A stretch of 58,222 nt of DNA from a virus (lineage: Duplodnaviria > Caudoviricetes), in the IMG/VR virus record IMGVR_UViG_3300037069_001350, positions 1 to 58,222 of that record; one strand, 5' to 3'. The first letter of the stretch is position 1. Every line of letters starts with the position of its first letter. Shown in pieces: positions 11,002 through 44,456 of the stretch. The notes below the pieces were generated by a model. That model was not told where the DNA came from. It saw only the letters and a program-made list of their open reading frames with translations, and did not search any database. Made by a program: the position numbers and the translations under genes.

Positions 11002-14000
11002 ATGGCCGAAGGCGGCGCGGGTCTGATCCCCCCTGTAGTGGTAACCCTCCGGGCGAAGGCCGGGGAACTGTTCAGCGAGTTCGGCAAGGTCAAGGACGAG
11101 ATCAAGCGCCTCGACCACGAGACCGAGGGCGGTCTGACCCGCGGCCAGAAGGCCATGCACGGCCTCGAAGCCGCTGGTCGCAAGCTGACCCTGGGCCTGG
11201 CCGGTGCCGCGATCGGCGGCGCTGCCGCCGCGGTGAAGCTGTCCGGCAACTTCGAGGAGGCGACGACCCAGCTGGTCACCGGCGCGGGCGAGTCCGAGGC
11301 GAAGATCGAGGACGTCCGCAAGGGCCTGCTGTCCCTCGCCCCCGCCGTCGGCCAGGGGCCGGAAGCACTCGCGAAGGGTATGTACCTGGTCGAGTCCGCG
11401 GGCTACCACGGCGCGCAGGGCCTCATGGTGATGAAGGCCGCGGCGCAGGGTGCCACGGTCGGTGCGACCGACACGGCCACCGTCGCCGACGCTCTCACCA
11501 CGGTGCTCACCGACTACGGCATCAAGGCCAACCAGGCGGGTGTCGTCACCTCGAAGCTGGTCGCCACCGTCGCGTCCGGCAAGACCACGATGGGCGACCT
11601 CGCGGGCTCCCTGCACAACGTGGTGCAGCGCGCCGCGTCCGCCGGTGTCGGGCTGAACCAGGTCCTCGGTGCTATGGCGACGATGACCTCCCAGGGCATC
11701 TCCGCCGACCAGGCGTCGCAGGACCTCGCCAACGCGATCCAGTCCCTCGAAAACCCGACCCAGGGTCAGACGAAGGAGATGCAGCAGCTGGGGTTGAAGT
11801 CCGCGGACATCTCCCACAACCTCGGCAAGCGCGGCCTGACCGGCACGCTCGGCATCCTCGAAGGCGCTCTCGCGAAGCACATGCACGCGGGCTCGGTGTG
11901 GATGTCGACCTACAACAATCTCGCCGAGGAGACCGGCAAGGTCAACACGATGTTGAAGGCGCTGCCGCCTTCGATGCAGGGCATCGCTCGCGAGTACGCG
12001 AACGGCACGGTCACCTCGAAGCAGTGGCGTCACGCCATGATGGGGATGAACGTCGAGCAGAAGCAGCTGGCCCAGCAGTTCGCCGCCGGGGTGAACCGCA
12101 CCCGCGGCTTCAACTCGACGCTGACCGCGTCCGGCCCGTCGGCCCAGACCTTCGGCGCGGCGCTGGCGAAGCTGACCGGCGGCGCGACCGGCATGAACGT
12201 GGCCCTCGCGATCGGCGGGCAGCACGCCTCGACCTTCGCCGCCAACGTGAAGAACCTGGGCAGCACCACCACCGAGGCCGGTGGCAACGTGAAGGGCTTC
12301 GGGCTCGCCTCGAAGGACTTCAACTTCCAGCTGGCGCAGCTGTCCGCGGCTGCCCAGGCGCTCGCGATCAAGGTCGGCGACAAGCTGATCCCGGTGATCA
12401 TGTCGGTGGTCAACTTCTTCAAGTCGCACCGCTCGGCCACCATCGCCCTCGCTGCTGCGATCGGCGGCATCATGGTGCTCGCGATCGGCGCGTACATCTT
12501 GAAGCTGGCCCGCGCCGCGAAGGAAACGGTCACCTCCTACGGGAAGATGATCAAGGGCGGGTACGAGTGGCTGGCTAAGCTGATCAGCGGTAAGACCCAG
12601 GCGACCGCCGCCGAGAACAAGGCGGTCGCGAGCAAGGAGACCGCGGCCAGCCGCTCGGTCGAAGCCGACAAGGCCATGAGCGACGCGCAGAAGCGCGCCG
12701 CGATGATCGCCCAGCAGACCGCCGAGCAGCAGGCTCAGGCCGCGAGCATGGTCGCCGAGTCGCAGGCCAGCATGGCGACCGCCGCCGCGGAGTCGGCAGC
12801 GGCCCAGGAGGGCTCCGCCGCTGCCGTCGTCGGCGCTGACGAGGGCATGGCTGCCGCCGCCGAGACCACCGCTCCCGCGATCGAGACCGCAATGGGTCCG
12901 ATCGGCCTCGCGATCGGTGCGATCGGCCTCGTCGCGATGCTGCTCATGTCGCACTGGAAGCAGGTCTGGGGCGCGATCAAGGACGTCACGCGCATGGCGT
13001 GGAACGACGTGTTGAAGCCGGTGTTCGGCTTCATCATGGACGTCGCGATCAAGCCGATGATGGAGCAGATCAAGGTCCTGCAGGGCATCTGGAACACCGT
13101 GTGGGACACGATCTCCTCGGTGATCAAGGCCGTGTGGGATGACGGCATCAAGCCGGTGTTCGACTTCATCAAGAACAACTGGAAGCTGCTGCTGGAAGTC
13201 CTCGGCGGTGGCCTGGTCCTGCTGATCACGCACTGGAAGCAGGTGTGGGGCGCGATCGAGCGGGTCGCCCGCATGGTCTGGAACGACGTGTTGAAGCCGG
13301 TGTTCCACTTCATCTACGAGGTGGGCATCCGACCCGTCATGTCCGCCCTGGACTGGCTCGGTCGGGGCTGGTCGAACATCTGGAACGGCATCGGCAGCGT
13401 CGCGAGCGACGTGTGGAACAACGTCGTCAAGCCGGTGTTCGACTTCATCAACAACTACGGCATCCAGCCGATCGCCTCGGTGATCCAGTGGTTCGGCAAC
13501 CTCTGGCACTCGATCTGGAACGACGTCGGCCAGGTGATTCAGGACGTCTGGAACTGGATCAAGCCGATCATCGACACCATCAAGTCGGCCTTCGACGGGG
13601 TGATGTCGGTCGTGCACTCGGTCGGCAGCTTCATCGGCGGTGTCGGGCACGCGGTCGGCAGCTTCCTGGGCCTCGACACTGGTGGCCCGGTGCCGGGCGC
13701 TGTCGGTTCGCCTGTCCCGGCGATCGTGCACGGCGGGGAGTACATGCTCTCCGCGAACATGCTGTCCGGCAAGGCCCCGATCGACCCGCACGTCGTCGGT
13801 GCAGTCATGGCGAACGCCGCGGCTGACCCGGTCGCCGCGGCGCATCTCTCGAAGTCGGCCAGCTACGGCGGCGGCTCCGCGGGTGCACTGCTCGGCGGCG
13901 GGCACGGCGGCGGCTCGGGCGGCTCCGGTGGCGGCGGTTCGACCGTCGTCGTCCAGGGCTCGGTGATCGACATGCAGGGTCTGTTCCAGGCCATGCAGAC

Positions 14001-14061
14001 CGCGGCGCTTCGCCACGGCACTCAGAACGCCCAGACCTGGGCACCGTTCAAGCGGGGGTAG
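11002..14061 (+). CDS. Tape measure protein
   Basis: 1019 aa, Ala-rich helical; periodic Trp repeats with an internal 93-aa duplication (12952 and 13231); GGPVPG...AIVHGGEY motif. Confidence 0.92.
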   Translation: MAEGGAGLIPPVVVTLRAKAGELFSEFGKVKDEIKRLDHETEGGLTRGQKAMHGLEAAGRKLTLGLAGAAIGGAAAAVKLSGNFEEATTQLVTGAGESEAKIEDVRKGLLSLAPAVGQGPEALAKGMYLVESAGYHGAQGLMVMKAAAQGATVGATDTATVADALTTVLTDYGIKANQAGVVTSKLVATVASGKTTMGDLAGSLHNVVQRAASAGVGLNQVLGAMATMTSQGISADQASQDLANAIQSLENPTQGQTKEMQQLGLKSADISHNLGKRGLTGTLGILEGALAKHMHAGSVWMSTYNNLAEETGKVNTMLKALPPSMQGIAREYANGTVTSKQWRHAMMGMNVEQKQLAQQFAAGVNRTRGFNSTLTASGPSAQTFGAALAKLTGGATGMNVALAIGGQHASTFAANVKNLGSTTTEAGGNVKGFGLASKDFNFQLAQLSAAAQALAIKVGDKLIPVIMSVVNFFKSHRSATIALAAAIGGIMVLAIGAYILKLARAAKETVTSYGKMIKGGYEWLAKLISGKTQATAAENKAVASKETAASRSVEADKAMSDAQKRAAMIAQQTAEQQAQAASMVAESQASMATAAAESAAAQEGSAAAVVGADEGMAAAAETTAPAIETAMGPIGLAIGAIGLVAMLLMSHWKQVWGAIKDVTRMAWNDVLKPVFGFIMDVAIKPMMEQIKVLQGIWNTVWDTISSVIKAVWDDGIKPVFDFIKNNWKLLLEVLGGGLVLLITHWKQVWGAIERVARMVWNDVLKPVFHFIYEVGIRPVMSALDWLGRGWSNIWNGIGSVASDVWNNVVKPVFDFINNYGIQPIASVIQWFGNLWHSIWNDVGQVIQDVWNWIKPIIDTIKSAFDGVMSVVHSVGSFIGGVGHAVGSFLGLDTGGPVPGAVGSPVPAIVHGGEYMLSANMLSGKAPIDPHVVGAVMANAAADPVAAAHLSKSASYGGGSAGALLGGGHGGGSGGSGGGGSTVVVQGSVIDMQGLFQAMQTAALRHGTQNAQTWAPFKRG

Positions 14062-21145: not shown

Positions 21146-21307
21146 TCAACTGGCTCGGTAGTGCAGCGCCTCGGTGCGCTTCGCGACGCGGGCCTTGCGG
21201 ATCTCGCCGTTCGTCCACACCGAGATCAGGATGAACCGCTGCGGGCTCGCGGTGCGCACCTTGTCACCGGCGGGCGTCGTGATCGTGCGGGCGCTGTTGC
21301 GGCTCAT
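21146..21307 (-). CDS. Small hypothetical protein
   Basis: ATGA overlap with the upstream ORF. Confidence 0.5.
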   Translation of the reverse strand: MSRNSARTITTPAGDKVRTASPQRFILISVWTNGEIRKARVAKRTEALHYRAS

Positions 21308-21519
21308 GACGCGCTCGCGCTCGGGCGCTTGACGTAGGACACACGGACGTCGAACGCCGTTCCGCCCCGACGGGTGCGGGCTACGGCCAGCGGACCGATC
21401 TTCGTCACGTCCCAGCCGTACTGACCCAGGAAGTCGGCAGCGCGCTGTGCGATCTGCTCGTCTGACGGGCGCGAGCCCATGAAGCGGATGGTCTCGGTGC
21501 GGCGTGGCTGGCGAGGCAT
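21304..21519 (-). CDS. Small hypothetical protein
   Basis: AGGGAG RBS and ATG. Confidence 0.6.
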   Translation of the reverse strand: MPRQPRRTETIRFMGSRPSDEQIAQRAADFLGQYGWDVTKIGPLAVARTRRGGTAFDVRVSYVKRPSASAS

Positions 21520-21573
21520 GTCGTTCTCCCTGTCTGGGTGAGATTGCTTGTCCCGGCCCTTGCGAGCCGGTCA

Positions 21574-21606
21574 CTAGGTATAACGCCCTGCGCGCCGGTT
21601 CATTCC
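21574..21606 (-). promoter_or_regulatory. SigR/SigH-type ECF promoter
   Basis: GGAAT(21606-02)-N17-GTT(21584-82)-N7-GTG. Confidence 0.6.
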
Positions 21607-21632
21607 ATCGCTGGGTGACTATCAGTCGCGTC

Positions 21633-21860
21633 TCAGGCGAGACCGTCGAACGCTTCGAGCCCGTCGATGAGGCGGTCGGACGCGGCGCGCAGCATGTCCT
21701 CGCCGTCGTACAAGTTGATCAACCACTCGGGACACACGCCGATCCTCGGCGGGTTGGGGACCTTCGCTCGATCGAGCGCCCGCATCGCCCGACCGATATG
21801 CCGGACGGCCTGCACGAGTTCGCGGTGCTGCCGGTCGGTGAGGGTGAGGTCTGCGCTCAC
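21633..21860 (-). CDS. Hypothetical protein
   Basis: GTGA overlap; operon packing. Confidence 0.55.
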   Translation of the reverse strand: MSADLTLTDRQHRELVQAVRHIGRAMRALDRAKVPNPPRIGVCPEWLINLYDGEDMLRAASDRLIDGLEAFDGLA

Positions 21861-22300
21861 GAGTCACCCCGACCCGGCACCCGTTCGAGCGGGCCGGTGC
21901 GGTTGCGCCGGACCATGCCGTACAGGGCCTCGATCTGACTGCGGATCAGCCACTCGGGCAGCCCGTTGCGCTCGGCTGCGAACTTCGCCGCCCGGCGCAG
22001 CAGGGTGTCCCAGCGGTTGCGGCTGATCAGGTCGCCGCAGGTGTCGCACGCCGCCCAGGCCCCGACCGACATCTCGCCGACGGGGTTGATGAACGTCTCG
22101 CACGGCAGCTGCCACGACGGGAAGTCGGCGTTGCAGAAGTCGCAGCGCCCGATCGCCTCGATCTCGTCGAGGGTCACGGGCACCGCCGGGTGATCTTCGG
22201 TCAGCTGGTCGTGCGCGCCATGCTGGTATCCGTAGCCAGTCCGGTAGTCGAGCATCCGACCGCAGACCGCGCACGCCCTGAACTCGTGCGGCGCGGTCAC
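21857..22300 (-). CDS. Zinc-binding hypothetical protein
   Basis: CAVC, CDFC and WAACDTC motifs; GTGA overlap at 22300. Confidence 0.65.
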   Translation of the reverse strand: MTAPHEFRACAVCGRMLDYRTGYGYQHGAHDQLTEDHPAVPVTLDEIEAIGRCDFCNADFPSWQLPCETFINPVGEMSVGAWAACDTCGDLISRNRWDTLLRRAAKFAAERNGLPEWLIRSQIEALYGMVRRNRTGPLERVPGRGDS

Positions 22301-22524
22301 TGGCGACACCGCCGCTCGGCGGCGAGGTGGGCCTGGTCCTGCGCGAGCAGCCGCGCGGTGTTGCAGAGCGGGTCGTGCACGCCGCGGGCCACCTCGGAGA
22401 TCGGCACCCGCGGTCCGGCGATGCACGCGATGCGGTGCACCTCGCGCAGCAGCTGCGCCACGGGCATCTCCTCGCTTCCGGGCTCGCCGAGTTCGGCGTC
22501 GACGTCAGGGTAGTAGCTACTCAC
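22297..22524 (-). CDS. Hypothetical protein
   Basis: Overlapping operon packing. Confidence 0.55.
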   Translation of the reverse strand: MSSYYPDVDAELGEPGSEEMPVAQLLREVHRIACIAGPRVPISEVARGVHDPLCNTARLLAQDQAHLAAERRCRQ

Positions 22525-22783
22525 CGTTCGCCCCCCTGATCATCGCCAGCATGGCCCGTTTCTCGGCTTCCAGCTTGTCGCGGTCGATCTCGAAGTGCTG
22601 GGCCAGCAGGTCCTGCAGGTCGCCGCCCCAGGGCACGAACGTCCGGCCCGTGCCGTAGTCCTCGAACTGGACGTGGTGCCCGAGCATGATGCCCTGGGTG
22701 CCCAGCCAGTCGACGAACTCGCCGATCGCCTGGGACTCGCGCTGGATCGCCTGCAGCTTGCCGTGCTCCGGGTAGTCGCTCAC
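22517..22783 (-). CDS. Hypothetical protein
   Basis: YPEHGKL...SQAIGEFVDWL; typical codon bias. Confidence 0.7.
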   Translation of the reverse strand: MSDYPEHGKLQAIQRESQAIGEFVDWLGTQGIMLGHHVQFEDYGTGRTFVPWGGDLQDLLAQHFEIDRDKLEAEKRAMLAMIRGANGE

Positions 22784-22926
22784 CGCGGCACCCCACCCTT
22801 CCCCCAGCGTTCGAGGAAGCGGTTCACCGCGGCGGACACCGAGGTGGCCTCGCGCTCGGCGCGGTCCTGTGCCGCCTTCCAGCGGTCGTCCGGCACCCGG
22901 ATGCCGCGGATCGTGGTCTCAGCCAT
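22780..22926 (-). CDS. Ribbon-helix-helix DNA-binding protein
   Basis: IRGIRVPDDRWKAAQDRA...SVSAAVNRFLERW pattern. Confidence 0.7.
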   Translation of the reverse strand: MAETTIRGIRVPDDRWKAAQDRAEREATSVSAAVNRFLERWGKGGVPR

Positions 22927-23095
22927 GACGCGCCCCCCGGTTCTCGTAGTTCTCCGCAGGGAACGGCCCGATCTCGGAGCCCCCGAGGTCGAGGTAGATG
23001 CCGTCGGCCTCGACGCGGGTGACCTCACGCGGGTCCAGCTGGCCGGACTTGTGATCAGCCCAGTCGCCGACCTCGAAGGTGGTCTCGGTCGTCAC
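22919..23095 (-). CDS. Small SH3-like hypothetical protein
   Basis: FEVGDW start; GTGA overlap with the clamp gene. Confidence 0.55.
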   Translation of the reverse strand: MTTETTFEVGDWADHKSGQLDPREVTRVEADGIYLDLGGSEIGPFPAENYENRGARHG

Positions 23096-24249
23096 GCTGC
23101 CACCGCCTCGGCGTCGGGCAGCTTGATCACCATGATCAGGTAGACGCACTCGTAGCCTTCCTGCAGCCCGGCACGCTCGCCGCGGATCATGTGCGGCTTC
23201 CGCCCGGTGTGCGCGGTGATCGACACGGTGTCCGAGGTGAACGCGGCCAGGCCGTCGGCCAGGTACTTCGGATTGAACCCGGTCAGCCACTCGTCCGAGC
23301 CGCGGCGGTCGGTGTCGATCGGGCGCGAGCCCTGCACGGTGACGCTCTCGCCGAAGGTGATGCGGACCGGCTGGCCCTTGTCCACCACGCAGCCCGCGGC
23401 CTTGACGTCGGCCAGCAGGTCCTTCCGGTCGACGTCCCAGATGGTCGGGGTCTCGACCGGGATCAGCGACTGGTAGGCCGGGAAGGTCGAGTCGAGCGGG
23501 CGGATCACCAGCGCGTCGGTGCCGTTGCGGATCACGACGGTGTTCTCCGTGCGGTGCACCGAGAGCAGGCCCGTCATGGCCTTGATCGCCGGGAGGGTGT
23601 CGCCGGGCAGGTTGAACCCGAACTCGGCCTCGACGAAGCCGGGGCACTCGGTGACGGCCAGCCGGTAGCGGTCGGTGGCCGCGAACGAGAGCGTGCCGGG
23701 CGTGATGCCCTCGACCCGGATGCAGGTGAGCATCGGCAGCGTGTCGTCCTTCCCGCGGGCGGTCGCGGCGAACGCGAGCGCCTGATTCAGTGCGGGCGCG
23801 TCGACGGTGGCGATGATGCCTTCGTCGGGCAGGGTCGGGAGCGACGGGTACTCCTCCGGGTCGTTGCGCGCGTCGTCGCTGACCTGCAGGGTGCGCCCGA
23901 AGCCGAGCAGCTTGACGACGCCGCCGTACTGGCCCTCGCCGGGCTCGTAGGAGATGGTGACGACCTCGCCCGCGGCCTTGCGCGGGGTGGTTGCGCCACG
24001 GATGCCGCGCAGCGCGTCGCGCAGCGCGTGGGTCGGCAGCAGGGCGTCGGGGCCGAACACCTCGAAGCCGCCCGTGCCGAGCACGGTGTAGGTGTCGAGG
24101 TTGGTGCTGACGATCTTGCCGTCGGCCAGCTTCGCGTAGGCGAGGATCGGCAGGGACGTGCGGGTGAGCGTGGTGTGCGCGAGACGGTTGAACGTGTCGA
24201 CGAGGCCCGAGTAGGGGCCGGTCAGGGTGGTAGCGGTCAAGATGATCAA
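23092..24249 (-). CDS. dnaN: DNA polymerase III beta sliding clamp-like protein
   Basis: DDTLPMLT, AATDRYRLA, FPAYQSLIP, GFNPKYLADGL and YLIMVIKL motifs. Confidence 0.85.
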   Translation of the reverse strand: MIILTATTLTGPYSGLVDTFNRLAHTTLTRTSLPILAYAKLADGKIVSTNLDTYTVLGTGGFEVFGPDALLPTHALRDALRGIRGATTPRKAAGEVVTISYEPGEGQYGGVVKLLGFGRTLQVSDDARNDPEEYPSLPTLPDEGIIATVDAPALNQALAFAATARGKDDTLPMLTCIRVEGITPGTLSFAATDRYRLAVTECPGFVEAEFGFNLPGDTLPAIKAMTGLLSVHRTENTVVIRNGTDALVIRPLDSTFPAYQSLIPVETPTIWDVDRKDLLADVKAAGCVVDKGQPVRITFGESVTVQGSRPIDTDRRGSDEWLTGFNPKYLADGLAAFTSDTVSITAHTGRKPHMIRGERAGLQEGYECVYLIMVIKLPDAEAVAA

Positions 24250-24275
24250 TCCTTTCGAGGTGGGATGATGTTCAT
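24246..24275 (-). CDS. Putative leaderless 9-aa uORF (MNIIPPRKD) coupled to the dnaN-like gene
   Basis: ATG 7 nt after the promoter GTT; its TGA overlaps the TTG at 24249. Confidence 0.4.
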   Translation of the reverse strand: MNIIPPRKD

Positions 24276-24308
24276 ACAGTCAAACGGCGGACGACGTCAA
24301 GTCATTCC
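24275..24308 (-). promoter_or_regulatory. SigR/SigH-type ECF promoter
   Basis: GGAAT(24308-04)-N18-GTT(24285-83)-TGACTGT-ATG. Confidence 0.75.
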
Positions 24309-24508
24309 GCACGCGATGCCGGGTAGCGGGCGAAGAACTCGGCGTTCAGCCGGGCCGCGGTGAAGTCGCGGGCCAGGTGCAGCCAGCGGGCGAACATCTC
24401 GGCGTCGAAGTCCCGAGCCGGTGCGGGCGGCTCCGGTGCCGGTGCCGGGGTGGCTACCGGGGCCGGGGTGGACCGGATGCCGGGCAGTCGGATGGTCGGT
24501 GCGCTCAC
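24302..24508 (-). CDS. Pro-rich hypothetical protein
   Basis: GTGA overlap. Confidence 0.5.
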   Translation of the reverse strand: MSAPTIRLPGIRSTPAPVATPAPAPEPPAPARDFDAEMFARWLHLARDFTAARLNAEFFARYPASRAE

Positions 24509-24774
24509 TTGATCACCCCCCTGCGGTGCACGGTGCGGACACGGTCGGGCCGGAACGAACGGAACCCGACGTGGCCGGGCTGGATGACGTCGATCCACTC
24601 GACGCCGTCGTCGCGCCGGACGTGCTGCACGAACTCGACGCGGCCACGGACGCCGGTGATCGAGAGCGGGGTGCCAGGCTCGACCCGGCGACCGTTGATC
24701 GACGTCTCGGTCGAGACCTTCCAGTCGGCGGGCAGCGGCTTCGGGGGCACCCGCTTACGAGGCTGCAGCAGCAT
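24505..24774 (-). CDS. SH3-like hypothetical protein
   Basis: PGTPLSITGVRGR...EWIDV...FRSFRPDRV pattern. Confidence 0.65.
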   Translation of the reverse strand: MLLQPRKRVPPKPLPADWKVSTETSINGRRVEPGTPLSITGVRGRVEFVQHVRRDDGVEWIDVIQPGHVGFRSFRPDRVRTVHRRGVIK

Positions 24775-25021
24775 CGGCGCTCACCCCCAGGGTGGCCGCG
24801 AACTGCCGGGCGTCGGCGTAGGCCAGGTCGATCGAGGTGTGCACCTCGTAGGGCTCGTGCTCGGCGTCGTTCGGGGTGAAGCGCCACTCGCTGAACCGGC
24901 GACCGTAGCTGCCGATGAAGCGACGGCCCTGCTCGATCCAGCCGACAACGGTGGACGTGCCTTCGAGGCGCAGTTCGCGCGTCTCGCCGTCCTCGTCGAA
25001 GCTGACGGAGAAATGGATCAT
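24755..25021 (-). CDS. Hypothetical protein
   Basis: GGGAG RBS; ATGA overlap. Confidence 0.6.
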   Translation of the reverse strand: MIHFSVSFDEDGETRELRLEGTSTVVGWIEQGRRFIGSYGRRFSEWRFTPNDAEHEPYEVHTSIDLAYADARQFAATLGVSADAAAAS

Positions 25022-25251
25022 GCGGTACTCCCTTCGGTGATCTTGTGGACGACGTGGTCCGCCGCGAGCGCGAGGCGGGCGGTGAACGCCTCGCCGCGCC
25101 CCTCGGGCAACGTCATGGATTCGGCGACGTCGGCGTGGACCTGGTCGCCATGCTCGGAGTAGGTGGCTTCGAGCACGAGGACGGCGAACATGCCGACGAT
25201 GTAGGTGTCGCCGGGCCGCAGTTCCGCGGCCCGGACCTCGGTGGTCGTCAC
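25018..25251 (-). CDS. Hypothetical protein
   Basis: VRAAELRPGD start; GTGA overlap. Confidence 0.55.
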   Translation of the reverse strand: MTTTEVRAAELRPGDTYIVGMFAVLVLEATYSEHGDQVHADVAESMTLPEGRGEAFTARLALAADHVVHKITEGSTA

Positions 25252-25484
25252 GGCAGCAACGCCCGCCCCTCGCGGGTGATCCGGTAGCAGACGTGGCCGT
25301 CGATGTCGCGGCCCTTCGCGACGAGCCCGCGGCTCACCAGCGAGGCCGCGGTCTGCGTCGCACCCTGCGGAGTCCGGTGGTTCCGGTACAGGACGCGGGC
25401 CAGGTCGCCGCCGGTGAACCAGAGGCCCTGGTTCGCATCGAGTAGTAGCAGCATGTCGCGCTGCGCGGAGGTCAGCTTGTTCAC
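25248..25484 (-). CDS. Winged-helix protein
   Basis: LTSAQRDML...SLVSRGLV...YRITREGRALL; GGAGG RBS. Confidence 0.7.
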   Translation of the reverse strand: MNKLTSAQRDMLLLLDANQGLWFTGGDLARVLYRNHRTPQGATQTAASLVSRGLVAKGRDIDGHVCYRITREGRALLP

Positions 25485-25915
25485 GCCGCCACCTCCCGGC
25501 GCTCGGCGCGAGCAACCTCGCTGCAGGGGCGCAGGTGGGCCGGGGCGACCTCGTGCTCCCAGAGGTAGACCCACTCGGGGTCGTCGCCCCGACGGAAGCC
25601 GTCGATCAGGTGCAGGCGCAGCACCGAGGCGATCGGCTCCTCGACGACACCGATGCGGTCATGCAGCGGAGTGCCGAGCCAGGTCGCCTGCGAGGTGACC
25701 CGGACGAGGTCGCCGTGGGTCGGCTCGGTGACGAACTGGACCTCGACGACGTCGGTGTCGAGCCCGTGGGCCTCGATGCAGGCGACGGCGTCCATGAGGG
25801 TGTCGAACTTGTGCGGGACCTCCGACGAGGGCGACCAGACACACAGGCCGTCGTTGTCGAAGTCCGAGACGTACAGGTCGTCCTGGTCGTGGATCACGTA
25901 GTAGGTGGCGGTCAT
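25481..25915 (-). CDS. Hypothetical protein
   Basis: ATGA overlap; acidic composition. Confidence 0.6.
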   Translation of the reverse strand: MTATYYVIHDQDDLYVSDFDNDGLCVWSPSSEVPHKFDTLMDAVACIEAHGLDTDVVEVQFVTEPTHGDLVRVTSQATWLGTPLHDRIGVVEEPIASVLRLHLIDGFRRGDDPEWVYLWEHEVAPAHLRPCSEVARAERREVAA

Positions 25916-26304
25916 CCCGAGATCACCTCGTAGCGGTCCGAGAGGTTGGCCTCGTCGTTTCCGTCGGCGAAGCTGACGAACCGCCGTCCGGGGTAGCCGA
26001 AGCCGGTGATCGCCAGGACTCGTCCGCGGCCAGCGACGACGTCGCCGACCTTCAAGTTCCACACGGCGACGAGGGTGGTCTCCGCCTTGCCGACATTGCG
26101 GTGCTGGCGCGAGGTGTAGGAGAGCGCGCCGCCCTGGCGCTTGCACACCGGGGTGGTGCTGGCGAGCGCGGGCCGGTCGAACGACGGCTCGTGGTGGACC
26201 TGGGTCCGACGGGCGGAGCCCGAGTCGATGTGGGTCTGGAAGTTGTAGGTCATGTAGATCAGTTCCCTTCGAGTGATGTGACGCCGCTGGTCCGCGGTGT
26301 TCAT
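25912..26304 (-). CDS. Hypothetical protein (leaderless start 26304 or internal ATG 26253)
   Basis: In-frame ATG 7 nt after the promoter GTT. Confidence 0.6.
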   Translation of the reverse strand: MNTADQRRHITRRELIYMTYNFQTHIDSGSARRTQVHHEPSFDRPALASTTPVCKRQGGALSYTSRQHRNVGKAETTLVAVWNLKVGDVVAGRGRVLAITGFGYPGRRFVSFADGNDEANLSDRYEVISG

Positions 26305-26337
26305 ACGTGTCAACCGGCGCTGTATGCACGCTATTCC
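26304..26337 (-). promoter_or_regulatory. SigR/SigH-type ECF promoter
   Basis: GGAAT(26337-33)-N18-GTT(26314-12)-GACACGT-ATG. Confidence 0.75.
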
Positions 26338-26342
26338 GCTGC

Positions 26343-26357
26343 TTGACAATCTGTCAA
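26343..26357. promoter_or_regulatory. Operator TTGAC-N5-GTCAA, also supplying divergent TTGACA -35 boxes
   Basis: TTGAC AATCT GTCAA; possible -10 boxes CAATGT (+ strand, 17-nt spacer) and TAGCGT (- strand, 18-nt spacer). Confidence 0.7.
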
Positions 26358-26378
26358 TCGCCGGGCAATGTCTCATAC

Positions 26379-26582
26379 GTGACCAGCCACGAGGAGACCT
26401 ACGAGGTCGAGGTCGACGTCGCCCTGGCGCGACCGCCCCGCGTGGACGCCACGGTGTTCGTCACGGTCGCCGCCAGCACCAGGACCGAGGCTGAGCTAGT
26501 CGCCTGCCAGATCGCCCAGTGCGACCGGCGGGTGGTCATGGCCGTCGGGTCGCGAGTTACTAGCGGACCAGGTACGGAATGA
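26379..26582 (+). CDS. Small hypothetical protein, probably leaderless
   Basis: GTG 7 nt after the putative -10 box; typical codon usage. Confidence 0.55.
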   Translation: MTSHEETYEVEVDVALARPPRVDATVFVTVAASTRTEAELVACQIAQCDRRVVMAVGSRVTSGPGTE

Positions 26583-26609
26583 AACTCGGTCAAGCGTCGT
26601 TTGACTGTA
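26576..26609 (+). promoter_or_regulatory. SigR/SigH-type ECF promoter
   Basis: GGAAT(26576-80)-N18-GTT(26599-601)-TGACTGT-ATG. Confidence 0.75.
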
Positions 26610-26764
26610 TGAACAACCGAACACGAGAGGAAGTGCTACACCACATGTTGATCTTCACCGCAATGCTGGGGGTCGGGCTCACGCTCGCCTTCCCGCCGCT
26701 CGGCCTGGCGATCCTCGGCATCTCGCTGATCGTCGCCGGTAGCAAGTCCCGCTCAACCAACTAA
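26609..26764 (+). CDS. Small membrane protein
   Basis: Hydrophobic hairpin; leaderless ATG 26609. Confidence 0.55.
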   Translation: MNNRTREEVLHHMLIFTAMLGVGLTLAFPPLGLAILGISLIVAGSKSRSTN

Positions 26765-26787
26765 CCCATCACCCAGGAGGCCACACA

Positions 26788-27816
26788 ATGTCCCACGAGA
26801 TCGAGATTCACGCCGACGGCTCCGCCGCCTTCATCAGCGCCCGCGAGGACGCCTGGCACCGACTCGGCACCGTCGTCCCCAGCGAGTTCACCGCGCAGGA
26901 GGCCCTGCAGGTCGCGAAGCTGGGCGACTGGAAGGTCGAGAAGCTGCCCGTCTACACCCGCGTGCTCACCAGCACCGGCTACGTCGAGGTCGCGCTGCCC
27001 GACACCTACACGACGGGCCGGTTCAACCCGGTCACCGGCGACCAGGAGGTCATCGGTGTCCAGACCGGCAACCACGGCACGGTCGGCAAGGTCTACGACC
27101 CGTTCCAGAACGAGCAGCTGTGCGACTTCATCGACGCCCTCGTCGACGAGTCCGGCGCACACCTGCAGACCGCGGGCTCGCTGCGTAGCGGCGCGGACAT
27201 CTTCGTCACGGCGAAGCTGCCCGAGGACCTGCTGATCGGCGGGGTCGACCCGATCAACCTGAACATCGCGGTGCTGAACAACCACACCGGCAACGCGGCG
27301 ATCCGGGCTCTGATCACCCCGACCCGCATCGTCTGCGCGAACACGCAGGCCGCGGCGCTCCGCAACGCGAAGGCCACCTTCAAGATCAGGCACACGTCCA
27401 CCGCGGCGGGCCGGGTCGAGGAGGCCCGGCAGGCGCTCGGGCTGACCTGGAAGTACGTCGACCAGTTCCAGACCGAGGCGGAGAAGCTGATCGAGAAGTC
27501 GATCACCGACGCGAAGTTCAACGAGATCGTCGGCCAGCTGTGGACGCCGGTCGACGCCGACACGACGGGCCGCGCCCTGACCCTGCAGACGACTCGCAAC
27601 GACGACCTGAACCGCCTGTTCAGCGACGCCGAGACGAACGCGAACATCCGGGGCACGGCATGGGCCGGGTACCAGGCGATCACCGAGTACCTGGACCACT
27701 TCACCCCGGTCCGCGGTCGCGGTGTCGACAAGGACCTCGCTCGCGCCGAGCGCGCCGCGACGGGTGCCTACGACGACGTCAAGTCGAAGGCGTTCAGCCT
27801 GTTCGCCGCGGTCTGA
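26788..27816 (+). CDS. DUF932/DUF945-family phage/plasmid protein
   Basis: AWHRLG, QNEQ, TAGSL..G, NNHTG, TPTRIVCANT, IRHT and GTAWAGYQAITEYLDH motifs; AGGAGG RBS. Confidence 0.88.
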   Translation: MSHEIEIHADGSAAFISAREDAWHRLGTVVPSEFTAQEALQVAKLGDWKVEKLPVYTRVLTSTGYVEVALPDTYTTGRFNPVTGDQEVIGVQTGNHGTVGKVYDPFQNEQLCDFIDALVDESGAHLQTAGSLRSGADIFVTAKLPEDLLIGGVDPINLNIAVLNNHTGNAAIRALITPTRIVCANTQAAALRNAKATFKIRHTSTAAGRVEEARQALGLTWKYVDQFQTEAEKLIEKSITDAKFNEIVGQLWTPVDADTTGRALTLQTTRNDDLNRLFSDAETNANIRGTAWAGYQAITEYLDHFTPVRGRGVDKDLARAERAATGAYDDVKSKAFSLFAAV

Positions 27817-27884: not shown

Positions 27885-27934
27885 GGTGGTCGACAACGGT
27901 GACTCACGTTCGTGAGTCGGCCTAAACGTCCCAC
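27885..27934. other. Candidate attP site
   Basis: GACTCACG-TT-CGTGAGTC dyad in the only intergenic gap next to the integrase; could instead be a terminator hairpin. Confidence 0.4.
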
Positions 27935-29343
27935 ACGGGTACGGGCGTGATCACCGGCTCCCGACCGGCGGTCACCTCGACGTGGCGCAGCAGCTGGCGC
28001 AGCATCTCGCGCCGCCGCTCGACGTCGAGGATGTCCCAGTCGGCCAGCAGGTCAGCTGCGAGCCGCCGTGGTCGGGTGGCGACGCCGTCGGCCTCGGCCT
28101 GCTTCATGCGCCGGGCCAGGATGTCGCGCTGGCCGGTGATCTGGTCGCGGGCGGCTGCGTAGGCGGCGGGCGGCACGAGCCCGGACGTGAGGTGCATGGT
28201 GAGGTCGGCCAGCTGCCGATCGAGCGCGGTGATCTCGCGGGCTAGGTTCTCGGCGTCGATCTTGCGGCGGGCGTTGTGGCTCTCGCGGGCCAGGTCGGCG
28301 TCGGCGTTCGAGGTCACCTCCGCCGCCGCGTCGGTTCGTAGCCAGTCGAGCACGGCGGCTTCGACGGGTGCCATGCCGATGCTCGCGTCGGGGTGCCGGA
28401 CCGGCGCGCTGCAGCGCCAGCGGTTGCGCTTCGAGTCGCACTGCGCCCACATCGGCGCACCGCACCGGCAGACCACCAGGCCCGAGAGCGGGTACGGCGA
28501 CACGTCGCCCCGTCGGCGCTGCCTGCGCGAGTCGCGTGCCGCCTGGTAGCTCACCCACTCCCCTTCGGTGATCACCGGCTCGTGCGCGCCGGGCAGGTGT
28601 TCGCCTTTCACGCAGAGCAGGCCCGCGCCGAACCCGGAGTCGAGCGTGTAGCGCAGCGTCTGCTTCGACCACTGGCCGCGCCAGTCGGCGACGTAGCCGC
28701 GGACCGTCGGCCAGCCGTTCGTGTTCAGCCAGCTAACCAGGGAGTCGATCGACTCGCCCGCGGTGTAGCGGCGGTAGAGGTCGGCGAGCACCGGCCCGGT
28801 CTCCGGGTCGATGGTGAACGGGACGCCGGGCCGGTATCCGAACCGTGGCTTGCCGTGGGCGGGTAGCCCGGCCTTGATCCGGCGGGCCTGCACCTCGCGC
28901 CACACGTCGCCGATCCGGTCGGACTCGAACGCGGCTAGCTCGGCGAGCATCCCGCGGGTGAACCGCCCGGTGGAAGTGGTCGCGTCGACCGATTCGGTCG
29001 CGGATTCGAGTCGCCCCCCTACGCCTTCGATCCGGTCGACGGCGACTGCCCAGTCTTTCCGGTTGCGCGCGACACGCGACCACTTCCACGTCACGATGAC
29101 GTCCGCGCCGCCGGACTCGATCATCTGCACGGCCTGCTCGATCGAGCGGCGCGTCCAGAGACGCCCGGTCATGTCGAGGTCGGTCAGCGTGTCGACGACG
29201 ACGTAGCCGCGGCTGGCGCAGTAGTCGTTGATCGCCGTGCGCTGCAGTTCGGGCGAGATCGAGTCGTCGTGCGTGCGGGACTGTCGGATGTAGGCGACGG
29301 CGCGCAGCGGCGCGTCGGGTACGGATGCGAGGCGGCGGGCCAC
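27922..29343 (-). CDS. int: Large serine integrase
   Basis: YIRQS catalytic Ser, WKWSRVAR, RFGY recombinase domain, LSGLVVCRCGAPM zinc ribbon, coiled coil. Confidence 0.95.
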   Translation of the reverse strand: MARRLASVPDAPLRAVAYIRQSRTHDDSISPELQRTAINDYCASRGYVVVDTLTDLDMTGRLWTRRSIEQAVQMIESGGADVIVTWKWSRVARNRKDWAVAVDRIEGVGGRLESATESVDATTSTGRFTRGMLAELAAFESDRIGDVWREVQARRIKAGLPAHGKPRFGYRPGVPFTIDPETGPVLADLYRRYTAGESIDSLVSWLNTNGWPTVRGYVADWRGQWSKQTLRYTLDSGFGAGLLCVKGEHLPGAHEPVITEGEWVSYQAARDSRRQRRRGDVSPYPLSGLVVCRCGAPMWAQCDSKRNRWRCSAPVRHPDASIGMAPVEAAVLDWLRTDAAAEVTSNADADLARESHNARRKIDAENLAREITALDRQLADLTMHLTSGLVPPAAYAAARDQITGQRDILARRMKQAEADGVATRPRRLAADLLADWDILDVERRREMLRQLLRHVEVTAGREPVITPVPVWDV

Positions 29344-29344
29344 G

Positions 29345-29866
29345 TCAGCCGATGATCCGGGCCTTCGCCGCGGTGAACTCCGCGTCCGTGAGCGCGCCTG
29401 CGGCGTGCAGACCGGCGAGGTGGGCCAGTTGGTCCCCGACGTCGGTCTGGGGCGCTACGGGCTGCGACGCGACCGGCGCGGGCCGGTCATCATGGAACAC
29501 CGCCTTGTGTTCCTGCATCCACGGACCGATCTTGCCGCGGACCCGCATGGGGTCGACGCGGTCCACCTCGAACACGACCTGCTCGGCCTTGTCGGTGTGC
29601 ACGATGACGTACGTGCGGGACTCGGTGGCCTTCGTGGCGAGCGCGCCCACCCCAAGCATCACCGCGGCCCCGGCGCGGGACTTCGCGACGTCGCCGCCGA
29701 CCACCTCGATCGACATGATCCGCTCGATGTCGACGCCGACCTTCATCTTGCGGAACCCGGTGATGCCGACGGCGTCGTCGGTGAACCGCAGGTTGCCGCC
29801 GATCTTCTTCGTCACGCCCGGCGCTCCGCCGAGGTAGGTGCCGAAGGTGAAGCTGACTTCGTTCAT
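29345..29866 (-). CDS. SHOCT-domain protein
   Basis: C-terminal LAHLAGLHAAGALTDAEFTAAKARI. Confidence 0.8.
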   Translation of the reverse strand: MNEVSFTFGTYLGGAPGVTKKIGGNLRFTDDAVGITGFRKMKVGVDIERIMSIEVVGGDVAKSRAGAAVMLGVGALATKATESRTYVIVHTDKAEQVVFEVDRVDPMRVRGKIGPWMQEHKAVFHDDRPAPVASQPVAPQTDVGDQLAHLAGLHAAGALTDAEFTAAKARIIG

Positions 29867-30351
29867 GCCTGTCTCCGGTGTGGAAGGGTCCGGCCTGGTG
29901 TGCAGCCTGCGCCGGACCGGGCCAGCTTGCGGTTGTGGCGCAGCGCCGCGCCGAGTTCGGCAACCTCGTCGTCGGTGAGGCAGTCGATCCTGTCTACAAG
30001 TACACCGCGCGCTACACCCAGAGTGTCGGCAGCGTCGAGGATGTCGAGGTCGTGCAGCGCGCGGCCCATCGCGGCGACGTCGGGCAGCATGAATCGGGCG
30101 GTCGCGTGCCGGACGACCAGTTCGTCGGCGGGGTTGCTCCCGAGCCGCAGGTCGATGTGCATGAGTTCGTGGGCGAGGGTGCAGCGTCGCTGCGGTCGGC
30201 CCAGGTCGTAGGCGAGGTAGATGATCGTTTCGTCGCCGTACCAGACGGTCTGTCCCCATCGGTCGTCGAGGTCGGACCGGAAGCGGACCTTGACGTTGGG
30301 GTGCCGGTCAGCCAGGAAGGCCCAGGGGTCGGCCTCGTACTTGCGGTACAC
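29863..30351 (-). CDS. ImmA/IrrE-family metallopeptidase (anti-repressor)
   Basis: RRCTLAHELMH HExxH motif; lies between repressor and integrase. Confidence 0.88.
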   Translation of the reverse strand: MYRKYEADPWAFLADRHPNVKVRFRSDLDDRWGQTVWYGDETIIYLAYDLGRPQRRCTLAHELMHIDLRLGSNPADELVVRHATARFMLPDVAAMGRALHDLDILDAADTLGVARGVLVDRIDCLTDDEVAELGAALRHNRKLARSGAGCTPGRTLPHRRQA

Positions 30352-30462
30352 CCATGCCGTCCTTCGTGTGAATGTTGCGTGAGGGGTGGATGCACCCTAG
30401 TGAGCGGACGGTGTACGGGACAAGCGTCGTTTCATGGGCAATCTTCCCGAAGTCTCAGTGGA

Positions 30463-30846
30463 TCAACGACGACGTTCGGACTTCGGCGGGGCCGAGGCTG
30501 CTACGGCGAGTCGCCGGGTGGCCGAGGCGGTCAGGCCGAGGCGTCGCGCGAGTTCGGCGACCAGCACCTCGTCGCTGAGTTGATCCGGGCTCGGCGCGGT
30601 CACGTTGCCGACCGGCACGCCGAAGGCGGCAGCCGCGGCCCGGTAGATCAGCGCGTCGTCCATGCGGAATGCCCAGGCGAGCGCGCGCAGCGTGTCACGT
30701 TTCGGCATGGCGTCGATGTACTCGCGGTCATCACTGAGTAGCTGGGACACCAGCTGGGGCGAAAGGTTCGCCGCTTTCGCCAGGTCGGCGGGCCTCCACC
30801 CGCGTTGATCCATCTCGTCCGTGATCAGTCGTCGCAATGCGTGCAA
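30463..30846 (-). CDS. Immunity repressor (XRE HTH)
   Basis: RGWRPADLAKAANLSPQLVSQLL HTH; GGGGGAG RBS before TTG 30846; divergent from cro. Confidence 0.85.
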   Translation of the reverse strand: MHALRRLITDEMDQRGWRPADLAKAANLSPQLVSQLLSDDREYIDAMPKRDTLRALAWAFRMDDALIYRAAAAAFGVPVGNVTAPSPDQLSDEVLVAELARRLGLTASATRRLAVAASAPPKSERRR

Positions 30847-30920: not shown

Positions 30921-30935
30921 TTGACGTGCTGTCAA
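30921..30935. promoter_or_regulatory. Operator TTGAC-N5-GTCAA
   Basis: TTGAC GTGCT GTCAA in the repressor/cro intergenic region. Confidence 0.75.
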
Positions 30936-31020
30936 GCGGAAGGTAACAGCGCCCGTCCCAAATGTCCAAATATTCACGCCCAGTGACGAGGTGTGACTCG
31001 GCGTAGCAGTAACTACACGC

Positions 31021-31048
31021 TTGACATCTCGTCAAGTCGCATTAGAGT
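31021..31048 (+). promoter_or_regulatory. Early rightward promoter with overlapping operator
   Basis: TTGACA-N16-TAGAGT containing TTGAC ATCTC GTCAA. Confidence 0.75.
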
Positions 31049-31085: not shown

Positions 31086-31322
31086 ATGCGGTTACGCAGC
31101 CCCGAAACGCTGGCCCGGCACATGGCCGAGGCCGACTGTTCGCAGGCCCGTCTCGCACGCGGAGCGAAGTGTTCGAGGCAGTTCGTGCACCAGCTGGTGA
31201 AGGGTCACGCGGGCGGCTGCAGCGTCGAAACTGCCCGCTCGATCGAAGGACTGCTCGGCGTCGCCCCCGGCACCTTGTTCGTGCCCGGAGAGTCGCCCGC
31301 CGATGGATCGACCGTCGCATGA
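31086..31322 (+). CDS. Cro-like HTH protein
   Basis: SQARLARGAKCSRQFVHQLVKG; GAGGAG RBS. Confidence 0.85.
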   Translation: MRLRSPETLARHMAEADCSQARLARGAKCSRQFVHQLVKGHAGGCSVETARSIEGLLGVAPGTLFVPGESPADGSTVA

Positions 31323-44445: not shown

Positions 44446-44456
44446 GGGGCCACACC

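Follow-up and report, generated by a model that had tools for sequence, protein, structure and literature searches.

The window analyzed here, a 58,222-nucleotide stretch of viral DNA, stems from a temperate phage whose host, a high-GC soil actinobacterium, is placed to phylum. The phage carries a WhiB-like gene, and all named homologues of its TerL and integrase are from Actinomycetota, in which, according to the literature drawn on here, SigR/SigH promoters have been described, and a search of sequencing runs found the stretch only in six soil DNA runs and in no RNA run. Between the lysis genes and the serine integrase lies a divergent module of 6.7 kb (21146-27816) comprising a DnaN-like clamp, a DUF932 protein, and ∼17 small genes (Table 1). 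These are the genes that a sequence-only reading of the DNA had placed behind four promoter-like sites, and the clamp, the DUF932 protein (by Pfam), and the small genes were confirmed. Site s1 heads the genes for a small membrane protein and the DUF932 protein, and s3 lies directly upstream of the clamp gene.

Table 1. Coordinates of genes, promoter-like sites, and operator-type palindromes.
Feature	Position	Strand	Remarks
Two small genes behind s4	21304-21519 and 21146-21307	-	71 aa and 53 aa; ATGA overlap
Site s4	21606-21582 (with downstream part 21572..21606)	-	GGAATG-N16-GTT (N17 counted from GGAAT)
Six small genes downstream of clamp	21633..23095	-	
Post-clamp small gene	21633-21860	-	
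Post-clamp small gene	21857-22300	-	Cys-rich
Post-clamp small gene	22297-22524	-	
Post-clamp small gene	22517-22783	-	phrog_21869
Post-clamp small gene	22780-22926	-	
Post-clamp small gene	22919-23095	-	
DnaN-like sliding clamp	23092..24240	-	382 aa from TTG 24240; PF02767 and PF02768 above cut-off
Site s3	24308-24283 (with downstream part 24269..24308)	-	GGAATG-N17-GTT-N5-GTATGAACA, promoter-like; = GGAAT-N18-GTT
Operon A, seven small genes	24302..26253	-	headed by s2
Operon A gene	24302-24508	-	
Operon A gene	24505-24774	-	DUF7246
Operon A gene	24755-25021	-	
Operon A gene	25018-25251	-	
Operon A gene	25248-25484	-	MarR-like winged helix, below Pfam cut-off
Operon A gene	25481-25915	-	
Operon A gene	25912-26253	-	orphan
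Site s2	26337-26312 (with downstream part 26298..26337)	-	GGAATA-N17-GTT-N5-GTATGAACA, promoter-like; = GGAAT-N18-GTT
Operator-type palindrome	26343..26357		TTGAC-N5-GTCAA; 5 nt upstream of s2 GGAAT
Previously unnoticed gene	26379..26582	+	67 aa; GC1/2/3 0.71/0.53/0.84
Site s1	26576-26601 (with downstream part 26576..26615)	+	GGAATG-N17-GTT-N5-GTATGAACA, promoter-like; = GGAAT-N18-GTT
Small membrane protein	26645..26764	+	39 aa from SD-led ATG; 51 aa if ATG 26609
DUF932 protein	26788..27816	+	PF06067, E 1.5e-59
XRE repressor	30463-30846	-	
Immunity-region operators	30921-30935, 31021-31035		TTGAC-N5-GTCAA; reference for palindrome at 26343
SigA-type promoter	in 30921..31048		TTGACA-16-TAGAGT; between XRE repressor and cro-like gene
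Cro-like gene	31086-31322	+	

Four sites of one layout and their likeness to SigR/SigH promoters

A motif scan recovered all four sites at the coordinates and with the spacers previously claimed for them, each co-oriented with the next downstream gene (4/4). The check proposed with the sequence-only reading, a comparison against shuffled sequence, also came out in their favor: GGAAT-N17/18-GTT occurs five times in the window, whereas 100 dinucleotide-preserving shuffles of it averaged 0.40 (sd 0.65, maximum 2) and never reached five. The fifth match, at 39833 (+), is within a gene; the other four are clustered in 5,030 bp, where ∼0.035 would be expected (arithmetic from the shuffle mean), and they account for four of the 13 GGAAT pentamers on both strands of the window. 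A one-mismatch scan of the window gave 40 matches, seven of them in or beside the crude intergenic set (s1-s4, one mirror of s4, and two GGAAG variants), and no additional convincing intergenic site. The sites had been called intergenic, which does not fully hold for s1 and s3: GGAATGA of the former overlaps the TGA stop of the 67-aa gene, and that of the latter overlaps the stop codon of 24302-24508, the gene upstream.

Sites s1-s3 stand in a single register, GGAAT-N18-GTT-N5-GTATGAACA, and exactly these three match this extended pattern in the window, which no shuffle matches. Site s4, with its N17 spacer and without the GTATGAACA box, is weaker. The start codon reported exactly 7 nt after GTT is present at all four sites (ATG in s1-s3, where the stretch indeed begins ATGAACA, and GTG in s4), and the 18-mer reported to be common to two of them was assigned to s1 and s3 by a repeat search. 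These two have an identical −35 block (CGGAATGA) and are identical at 18 of 18 positions in the −10/start block, but only 5 of 15 spacer positions are alike, which is the chance level (count on the site sequences). The sequence around +1 is usually not conserved in extracytoplasmic-function (ECF) promoters, and sigma recognition thus does not account for the 9-nt GTATGAACA box, which may mark a second factor.

The published consensuses, as far as the sources used here give them, are GGGAAT(G/C)-16 nt-(C/G)GTTG for SigR of S. coelicolor, (G/T)GGAA(C/T)A-16 nt-(C/G)GTT for SigH of M. tuberculosis, and (G/T)GGAATA-16-19 nt-(C/T)GTTGAA for SigH of C. glutamicum. In the last organism, GGAAT marks SigH-only promoters, whereas GGAAC marks the SigH/SigE class and is needed by SigE (PMC10012870); the promoters of mca, uvrD3, mshC, and trxB1 are confirmed as SigH-only. 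The −35 element of all four phage sites is GGAAT, with T at the fifth place, unlike the SigE-shared GGAAC. Together with its preceding base, the −10 element reads CGTT in s1, s3, and s4 and GGTT in s2, and the spacers of 18 nt (three sites) and 17 nt (s4) lie within the published range of 17-19. The flanking bases fit the published SigR/SigH forms as well: GGAAT is followed by G or A, GTT is preceded by C or G, and s2 reads GTTGA. Among the SigH-only promoters, those of mca and uvrD3 are identical in form to s1 and s3 (GGAATG-N17-GTT), and those of mshC and trxB1 to s2 (GGAATA-N17-GTT), which supports the SigR/SigH promoter form originally claimed. The sites thus share −35, −10, 18-nt spacer, and flanks with the promoters of the SigR (S. 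coelicolor) and SigH (Mycobacterium, C. glutamicum) regulons compared, the ECF class that responds to thiol-oxidative and heat stress. They differ in belonging to a phage, whose genome has four of them within 5 kb, in fronting a clamp gene, a DUF932 gene, and small ORFs and not thiol-homeostasis genes, in the extra conserved GTATGAACA box that three of them carry at the expected start, and in that their sigma dependence is a prediction.

Translation starts downstream of the sites

The ATG and GTG codons located 7 nt past GTT had been taken to be gene starts of leaderless mRNAs, which the present analysis does not support; mostly, they are not the true starts. Downstream of each of the four sites, at a distance of 35-55 nt, lies a Shine-Dalgarno (SD)-like element with a start codon: GAGAGGAAG before ATG 26645, GAAGGGAA before ATG 26253, GAAAGGA before TTG 24240, and GGGAGAA before ATG 21519. 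Most likely, the mRNAs have leaders of 35-55 nt and the genes start at these SD-led codons. That transcription instead begins at the A of ATG or at GTG, and translation proceeds without a leader, is improbable, even though the distance to GTT is constant at all four sites, ATGAACA is kept in three, and at both s1 and s2 the ATG shares the frame of its gene. The ATG of s3 (24275) opens an ORF of only nine codons, which ends at 24246, out of frame with the clamp gene and 5 nt before its TTG start at 24240, itself backed by seven aligned homologues in which M1 and T2 are invariant. At s4, GTG 21574 opens an off-frame ORF with a GC3 of 0.50-0.57, compared with 0.82 in the gene proper. At s1 (GC3 0.58, 4 of 12 codons rare) and s2 (GC3 0.76, 3 of 17), the in-frame extensions are rich in rare codons, and in a public protein collection the gene caller starts the s2 gene at its SD-led ATG, giving 113 aa. 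Moreover, the numbering in the published material, which places the T of GGAAT at −31 (PMC10012870), would put +1 of the phage sites one or two bases inside the ATG (arithmetic). A better candidate for a leaderless gene than the four starts claimed is the 67-aa gene, whose GTG follows a SigA-like −10 by 7 nt.

Operator-type palindromes and proposed control of the module

The palindrome TTGAC-N5-GTCAA occurs four times in the window (26343, 30921, 31021, and 45300), compared with 0.03 expected. The copies at 30921 and 31021 sit at the divergent promoters of the repressor and cro-like genes and overlap a TTGACA −35, as CI/Cro operators of the lambda type lie over divergent promoters; unlike in that system, one copy is found in the control region of the module, beside an ECF-type site. 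By eye, either strand has a TTGACA −35 hexamer that this copy overlaps, the readings being TTGACA-N17-CAATGT-N7-GTG(26379) for the plus strand and TTGACA-N18-TAGCGT for the minus strand. Repressor binding at the palindromes would fit this arrangement. The module had been considered partly outside the CI/Cro circuit, and the absence of a palindrome from s1, s3, and s4 agrees with this; at s2, however, a palindrome of the immunity-region form lies only 5 nt away, which weakens the claim, and the module does not appear clearly outside the circuit. Half-sites (TTGAC/GTCAA) number 64 in the window and 18 in its intergenic set, and 13 of these 18 belong to the four palindromes (8) or lie inside s1, s2, and s3 (5). 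Part of the similarity among the sites could thus belong to a repressor site.

As the sequence-only reading had stated, no phage-encoded sigma factor is apparent: in all six frames, PF04542 and TIGR02937 were without a match, TIGR02937 even when E values up to 10 were allowed, and 60 Pfam, 30 PHROG, and 10 PADLOC protein queries (100 family-scan queries) revealed none either. We consider it the best explanation, at a probability of roughly 55%, that s1-s4 are promoters of the ECF SigR/SigH class (group 4) with GGAAT as −35, an 18-nt spacer, and GTT as −10, which serve the divergent module. Because the phage encodes no recognizable sigma factor, they would be read by RNA polymerase with a host ECF sigma. 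On this model, s2 would start the leftward transcript, s3 and s4, neither of which is preceded by a gap for a terminator, would act as internal boosters before the clamp gene and the last two genes, and s1 would boost the rightward pair of membrane-protein and DUF932 genes. At the center of the divergent region, the CI/Cro-type operator lies on top of weak SigA-like −35 hexamers, so that the module probably receives input from both the immunity switch and the ECF sigma. Which sigma reads s1-s4 and when they fire in the phage life cycle we infer; their induction by disulfide (thiol) or heat stress is conjecture. If the SigR/SigH-type reading is true, the position of the sites before the gene block means that host stress could switch on phage genes of the module.

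The sites could also be ECF-type promoters with another reader, either a host sigma from another ECF group whose preference for AAT/GTT is similar or a phage protein that has diverged beyond recognition as a sigma factor, which we regard as unlikely. An AAC-type −35 with a CGT-type −10 is common to many ECF groups, and the SigH and SigE regulons overlap, but according to the same part of the literature SigE of C. glutamicum needs GGAAC and GGAAT is SigH-only (PMC10012870). Several phage proteins are without any family (e.g., 47855-48547), and the annotation of gp12 of phiC31 as “RNA polymerase sigma factor” implies that actinophages can encode one; against a phage protein speak, besides the failure of both sigma models, the results of an atlas search with 47855-48547, which returned no sigma-like neighbor (best feature score 0.81, all TM scores <0.3).

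It is quite unlikely that the boxes, instead of serving sigma recognition, are bound by a phage regulator, for which the XRE repressor, the cro-like protein, and the MarR-like protein encoded in the block are candidates, or are repeats at module boundaries, with the likeness to GGAAT and GTT partly coincidental. The GTATGAACA box at the expected start, which is outside the published ECF consensuses compared, the distribution of the half-sites, and the winged-helix gene in operon A would fit such a regulator. However, GGAAT and GTT are related neither as a dyad nor as a direct repeat, and the spacer is unconserved yet fixed in length, as in sigma-type promoters. In addition, TTGAC of s2 sits 1 nt off its place in s1 and s3, although GGAAT, GTT, and ATGAACA stay in register, which speaks for GTT and not TTGAC being the −10 unit that is conserved. 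That the sites are unusual housekeeping (SigA) promoters, or depend on an activator as in sigma appropriation, TATGAA serving as a poor −10, is very unlikely. By eye, s3 can be read as TTGACG-N18-TATGAA, and a WhiB-like gene in the early operon encodes a SigA-binding regulator; yet TATGAA does not end in T as the actinobacterial −10 (TANNNT) does, a −35-like hexamer is present only in s3, and none of the four sites came up in a sigma-70-type scan of 20-32 kb, whose sole promoter was the cro-side one at 31021.

Comparison with other genomes and known systems

Several homology searches found no relatives sharing the block. The nearest clamp relative (40% identity), which is the only full-length one in IMG/VR, has no such motif, and the DUF932 neighborhoods of three cultured actinophages contained no match (0). 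Among 28 TerL-related viral records, 18 matches in 1.31 Mb correspond to a background of one per 73 kb, and none of these records has a comparable cluster; single genomes of Streptacidiphilus and Arthrobacter had one match per 99 kb and one per 33 kb, respectively.

Phage phiC31 is, judging from its annotation, an actinophage that redirects transcription from plain SigA promoters, but it has an annotated sigma gene, of which the phage studied here has no recognizable counterpart, and its genome has no GGAAT-N17/18-GTT (neither of its two GGAA[TC] matches is GGAAT). Host control is known from staphylococcal prophages, whose int genes are reported to be controlled by the alternative sigma SigH of the host via a conserved untranslated region (PMC2869324). 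The likeness lies in a host alternative sigma acting on prophage genes; sigma family and phylum are different, as is the integrase target, the integrase operon of the present phage being without such a site. In C. glutamicum, the gene for a “putative phage-associated protein”, cg0378, is listed in the SigH/SigE regulon with the promoter GGAACA-N16-CGTT. Both cases thus concern phage-related genes behind an ECF-type promoter, but cg0378 is, as listed, just one gene on the chromosome, and its promoter has the GGAAC form (SigH and SigE), whereas the GGAAT sites described here form a cluster on a complete phage genome.

Sequence and distribution of the promoter-like sites

The pattern GGAAT-N17/18-GTT was found five times in the window, compared with a mean of 0.40 in 100 shuffled sequences, none of which reached five matches. 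Thus, the enrichment over shuffled DNA suggested as a check by the sequence-only reading was borne out, and the four sites which that reading had listed were all recovered where it had placed them (s1 to s4; see table). The four fall within 5,030 bp, for which simple arithmetic from the shuffle rate predicts ∼0.035 matches, and the window contains 13 GGAAT pentamers on both strands together. When one mismatch in GGAAT and spacers of 16–19 nt were allowed, 40 matches resulted. Seven of these lay in or beside a crude intergenic set (14% of the window), namely s1 to s4, the mirror image of s4, and two matches with GGAAG; the motif is therefore confined to the divergent module. In 28 terminase-related viral records (the longer ones among 80 TerL loci; 1.31 Mb) the pattern matched 18 times versus 4 times for the reversed control pattern; the corresponding numbers were 74 and 17 for a Streptacidiphilus genome (7.3 Mb), and 146 and 37 for an Arthrobacter genome (4.8 Mb). 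The cluster is real, non-random, and shaped like a set of promoters.

Sites s1, s2, and s3 fit the longer pattern GGAAT-N18-GTT-N5-GTATGAACA, which no shuffled sequence matched. Between s1 and s3, both CGGAATGA and an 18-mer reaching from CGTT through AACA are identical, whereas the spacer agrees at 5 of 15 positions, which is the chance level at this base composition. Conservation is therefore bipartite, with the length of the spacer fixed and its sequence free. Judged by sequence, this is the signature of a putative sigma-type promoter, and not of a recent duplication or of a dyad-symmetric protein-binding site. In s2, TTGAC is displaced by one base from its position in s1 and s3, while GGAAT, GTT, and ATGAACA keep their register, which identifies GTT as the conserved −10 unit. 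Site s4 is the weakest of the four because its spacer is 17 nt long and the downstream box is missing. The conserved GTATGAACA box could be start-site context, a leaderless mini-ORF, or the site of a second factor.

The consensus sequences listed in PMC3489674 are GGGAAT(G/C)-16 nt-(C/G)GTTG for SigR of S. coelicolor, (G/T)GGAA(C/T)A-16 nt-(C/G)GTT for SigH of M. tuberculosis, and (G/T)GGAATA-16–19 nt-(C/T)GTTGAA for SigH of C. glutamicum. According to PMC10012870, GGAAT together with GTT marks promoters read by SigH only, and GGAAC together with cGTT those read by both SigH and SigE. Of the promoters described there as SigH-only, confirmed in vivo and in vitro, mca and uvrD3 have the form GGAATG-N17-GTT, which is that of s1 and s3, and mshC and trxB1 the form GGAATA-N17-GTT, which is that of s2; s4 reads GGAATG-N16-GTT. 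The same source places cg0378, encoding a “putative phage-associated protein,” behind GGAACA-N16-CGTT. The consensus as stated in the sequence-only reading is therefore correct, and the sites match it in the flanking bases as well. Of all readings examined, the SigR/SigH class is the one that fits the cluster best.

Other sequences resembling parts of the motif were encountered in the window. The fifth match (39833–39858, +; GGAAT-N18-GTT) lies within a gene (39206–39985), has the −10 sequence GTTGAA found in the C. glutamicum consensus, and precedes by 125 nt a small ORF that comes after the stop codon of this gene. The product of the small ORF resembles, by eye, a helix-turn-helix protein, and a HicA-like ORF (Pfam score below the cut-off) is located there too; the match could be an internal promoter or due to chance. 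The 12-mer CAAGCGTCGTTT, taken from the spacer and −10 region of s1, recurs at 30419–30430 (+) between the IrrE-like and the repressor gene, there without a GGAAT at the right distance, and could be a remnant or a chance occurrence. A 25-nt word, GGAAC...GTGTT, is present in three copies within 13001–13439 (+), spaced 279 and 135 nt apart. These lie inside a 1019-aa gene (11002–14061), taken to be the tape measure gene from its size and position, and represent internal protein repeats that imitate the GGAAC form of the motif.

Translation starts behind the sites

A start codon is located 7 nt past GTT in four out of four sites, which had led to the proposal that the mRNAs are leaderless. This proposal turned out to be mostly wrong, as most of these codons are not where the genes begin. 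The ATG of s3 encodes MNIIPPRKD-stop, ending 5 nt short of the TTG (24240) of the DnaN-like clamp gene, which is read in a different frame. This TTG is preceded by GAAAGGA, and the resulting N-terminus matches that of seven homologues, M1 and T2 being invariant. The GTG of s4 opens an Arg/Pro-rich frame with a GC3 of 0.50–0.57; the real gene starts at 21519 behind GGGAGAA and has a GC3 of 0.82. The ATGs of s1 and s2 are in frame with the respective genes and would extend them by 12 and 17 codons. However, GC3 of these extensions is 0.58 and 0.76, versus 0.90 and 0.92 for the cores, and they contain four and three codons, respectively, that are used no more than twice per 1,000 in the long genes of this phage. 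ATGs led by a Shine–Dalgarno sequence are present at 26645 (behind s1) and at 26253 (behind s2), the latter also being the start of the public gene call (113 aa). In the numbering used in PMC10012870, the T of GGAAT is at −31; by arithmetic, a spacer of 18–19 nt would shift +1 into the ATG by one or two bases, and the 5′ AUG would be lost. Folding of the leaders was unremarkable (z-scores between −0.50 and +0.31), and no Rfam family was detected in the window.

Repressor operators and the candidate sigma factor

The palindrome TTGAC-N5-GTCAA occurs four times in the window, versus 0.03 expected, and the four copies are likely to serve the XRE repressor or the cro-like protein as operators, as far as their sequence and placement indicate. 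Two of them lie between the genes for these proteins, and one of this pair overlaps TTGACA-16-TAGAGT, the sole strong SigA-type promoter between 20 and 32 kb. A further copy, at 45300, is superimposed on TTGACA-16-TAGACT ahead of the MazG-like gene; this arrangement suggests that the repressor controls a second promoter far into the early region.

Features of the window, with coordinates
Feature	Coordinates	Strand	Remarks
Site s1	26576–26601	+	before small membrane protein and DUF932 genes
Site s2	26337–26312	−	heads leftward operon A
Site s3	24308–24283	−	before clamp gene
Site s4	21606–21582	−	before last two small genes
Palindromes	26343–26357, 30921–30935, 31021–31035, 45300–45314		each begins with TTGACA hexamer
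67-aa gene	26379–26582	+	GC1/2/3 0.71/0.53/0.84, good coding statistics; unlisted in the sequence-only reading
Terminase large subunit	52756–54207	+	
Portal	54200–56032	+	
Head, tail, lysis genes	after portal, up to 21074	+	
Divergent module	21146–27816		
Lysogeny operon	27922–30846	−	serine integrase, SHOCT-domain protein, IrrE/M78-type peptidase, XRE repressor
Serine integrase	27922–29343	−	
IrrE/M78-type peptidase	29863–30351	−	
XRE repressor	30463–30846	−	
Cro-like gene	31086–31322	rightward	early region comes next
Early region, genes		rightward	ERF, YqaJ-type exonuclease, SSB, WhiB-like protein, replication initiator, HNH
Early region, genes (continued)		rightward	DnaB-type helicase, nucleotidase, dNMP kinase, ClpP-like, MazG-like

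The remaining copy (26343) is central in the divergent control region of the module, with 5 nt between it and GGAAT in s2. Read rightward, it forms TTGACA-N17-CAATGT-N7-GTG (26379), and read leftward TTGACA-N18-TAGCGT, overlapping the GGAAT of s2; both are weak hexamer matches read by eye. The operator and the SigA-like hexamers at this position suggest that transcription probably enters the module in both directions through a SigA-type promoter under repressor control, with the ECF-type sites coming after it. The rightward GTG opens the 67-aa gene, whose TGA stop falls within the GGAATGA of s1. As this GTG follows the SigA-like −10 by 7 nt, with no room for a Shine–Dalgarno sequence, the gene is a candidate for leaderless translation; its product matched no PADLOC defence family.

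The notion that the block lies partly outside the CI/Cro circuit is weakened by the palindrome next to s2, but may hold for s1, s3, and s4, which lack the palindrome. However, half-sites are present in s1 to s3: of 18 intergenic TTGAC/GTCAA half-sites, eight belong to palindromes and five are single ones inside s1–s3. A sigma factor of the phage itself would be another candidate for reading the sites; the sequence-only reading had seen none, and none was found here by profile searches or protein family queries. In six-frame searches of the window, neither Sigma70_r2 nor the ECF model TIGR02937 (even at E up to 10) gave a match, while both models scored in control genomes, and no sigma family resulted from 60 Pfam, 30 PHROG, and 10 PADLOC protein queries, some short ORFs being covered for sigma only by the loose first look of the six-frame searches. 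A 230-aa protein without family (47855–48547), considered as a hidden sigma factor, had no sigma-like neighbor in an atlas search. Phage phiC31 differs in that it has a gene annotated as sigma factor and no GGAAT-type match. The best explanation of the cluster would be that an ECF sigma factor of the host reads the sites, to which we assign a probability of roughly 55%.

The sites may plausibly be induced by stress and act independently of the repressor. The full scenario is doubtful: the entire module, comprising the sliding clamp, DUF932, and about 17 small genes, would be handed to the thiol/heat-stress ECF sigma factor of the host, s1, s3, and s4 would escape the immunity repressor, and the prophage would sense redox state or heat directly and express genes within lysogeny. 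Leaderless mini-ORFs starting at the conserved 5′ AUGAACA could, in addition, adjust how the genes downstream of them are translated. Provided that the sites function in this way, the stress sensor of the host (the anti-sigma thiol switch) would be linked directly to genes of the phage, in parallel with the classical SOS/repressor route, and the sites would constitute four short, portable, stress-inducible promoters. Gene control in actinobacterial phages has been described almost wholly via SigA promoters, repressors, WhiB-like factors, and a few phage sigma factors. Control of phage genes by an alternative sigma factor of the host is of a kind already known, as are promoters of this well-described class; a set of actinophage operons read by SigR or SigH of the host was not found by a word search of the open-access literature, which is no proof of absence.

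Host and relatives of the phage

The record is linear (58,222 bp; completeness 92% according to CheckV), has a GC content of ∼0.70 along its whole length, and contains no tRNA genes. The genes are arranged as in a temperate siphovirus-like actinophage. Every named homologue of terminase and integrase stems from Actinomycetota, and the WhiB-like gene, of a family confined to Actinobacteria and their phages according to two abstracts, points to an actinobacterial host. The host is assignable to the phylum only. The lysogeny operon has the layout of protease-controlled (ImmR/ImmA-like) immunity, not that of RecA-mediated self-cleavage. Two stretches carry unusual cargo. Directly behind the portal gene (56047–57321, +), a protein of 424 aa is encoded that has a NUDIX domain at its N-terminus, and in the early region (43421–45176, +) the gene for an enoyl-CoA hydratase-like protein is followed, after a few hundred bases, by that for a ClpP-like protease.

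No relative close enough to test conservation was found. None of 50,697 phage records contained near-identical DNA. For the clamp, 76 phage matches were obtained, all <60% identical and none covering 80% of the protein. A single-protein query of IMG/VR returned no relatives of it, and a 7-sequence alignment returned 14 loci, of which only one (L023; 40% identity) was full-length and scored well above the others; this locus has no other block gene in common and no motif. Among the matches listed from metagenome contigs (80 loci), the best identity to the clamp was 38%, covering residues 129–382 only, and a public protein 87% identical is encoded on a contig of 1,599 nt. The first gene of operon A had no phage match, and among 1.84 billion representatives only itself and one weak 775-aa match. 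DUF932 and DUF7246 are common in actinophages (best identities 46% and 57%), usually near the right genome end, and GGAA[TC]-N16–19-GTT was absent from three DUF932 neighborhoods. PADLOC assigned no defence family to 10 block proteins.

Searching IMG/VR with the extended motif yielded 22 stretches, all with a GC content of 0.25–0.53 and dismissed as chance matches. None of the 28 terminase-related records had a motif cluster in high-GC DNA; the one with four matches has a GC content of 0.44, and its three matches in the retrieved locus (L060) are all inside ORFs. A genome scan with TerL gave 45 loci, two of them actinobacterial (Arthrobacter liuii, 66%; Streptacidiphilus, 70%). The prophages at these places (L201, L246, and L247 in A. 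liuii; L202 in Streptacidiphilus) share terminase, portal, and capsid genes at 42–70% identity and have none of the module genes from 21–28 kb; the head module is therefore mosaic across actinobacterial orders. Three motif matches near the end of the A. liuii prophage do not convincingly head genes.

The stretch is present in six soil sequencing runs, all of DNA. Full-length matching contigs from four soil DNA runs were identical to the window and thus offered no variation for comparison. One soil contig (run X5) joins two parts of the block (joint 24025/24804) via 39 differing letters, which include GGAATGAAAC, the −35 word of s1; this contig is short, and its source may be a related phage that has a site resembling s1.
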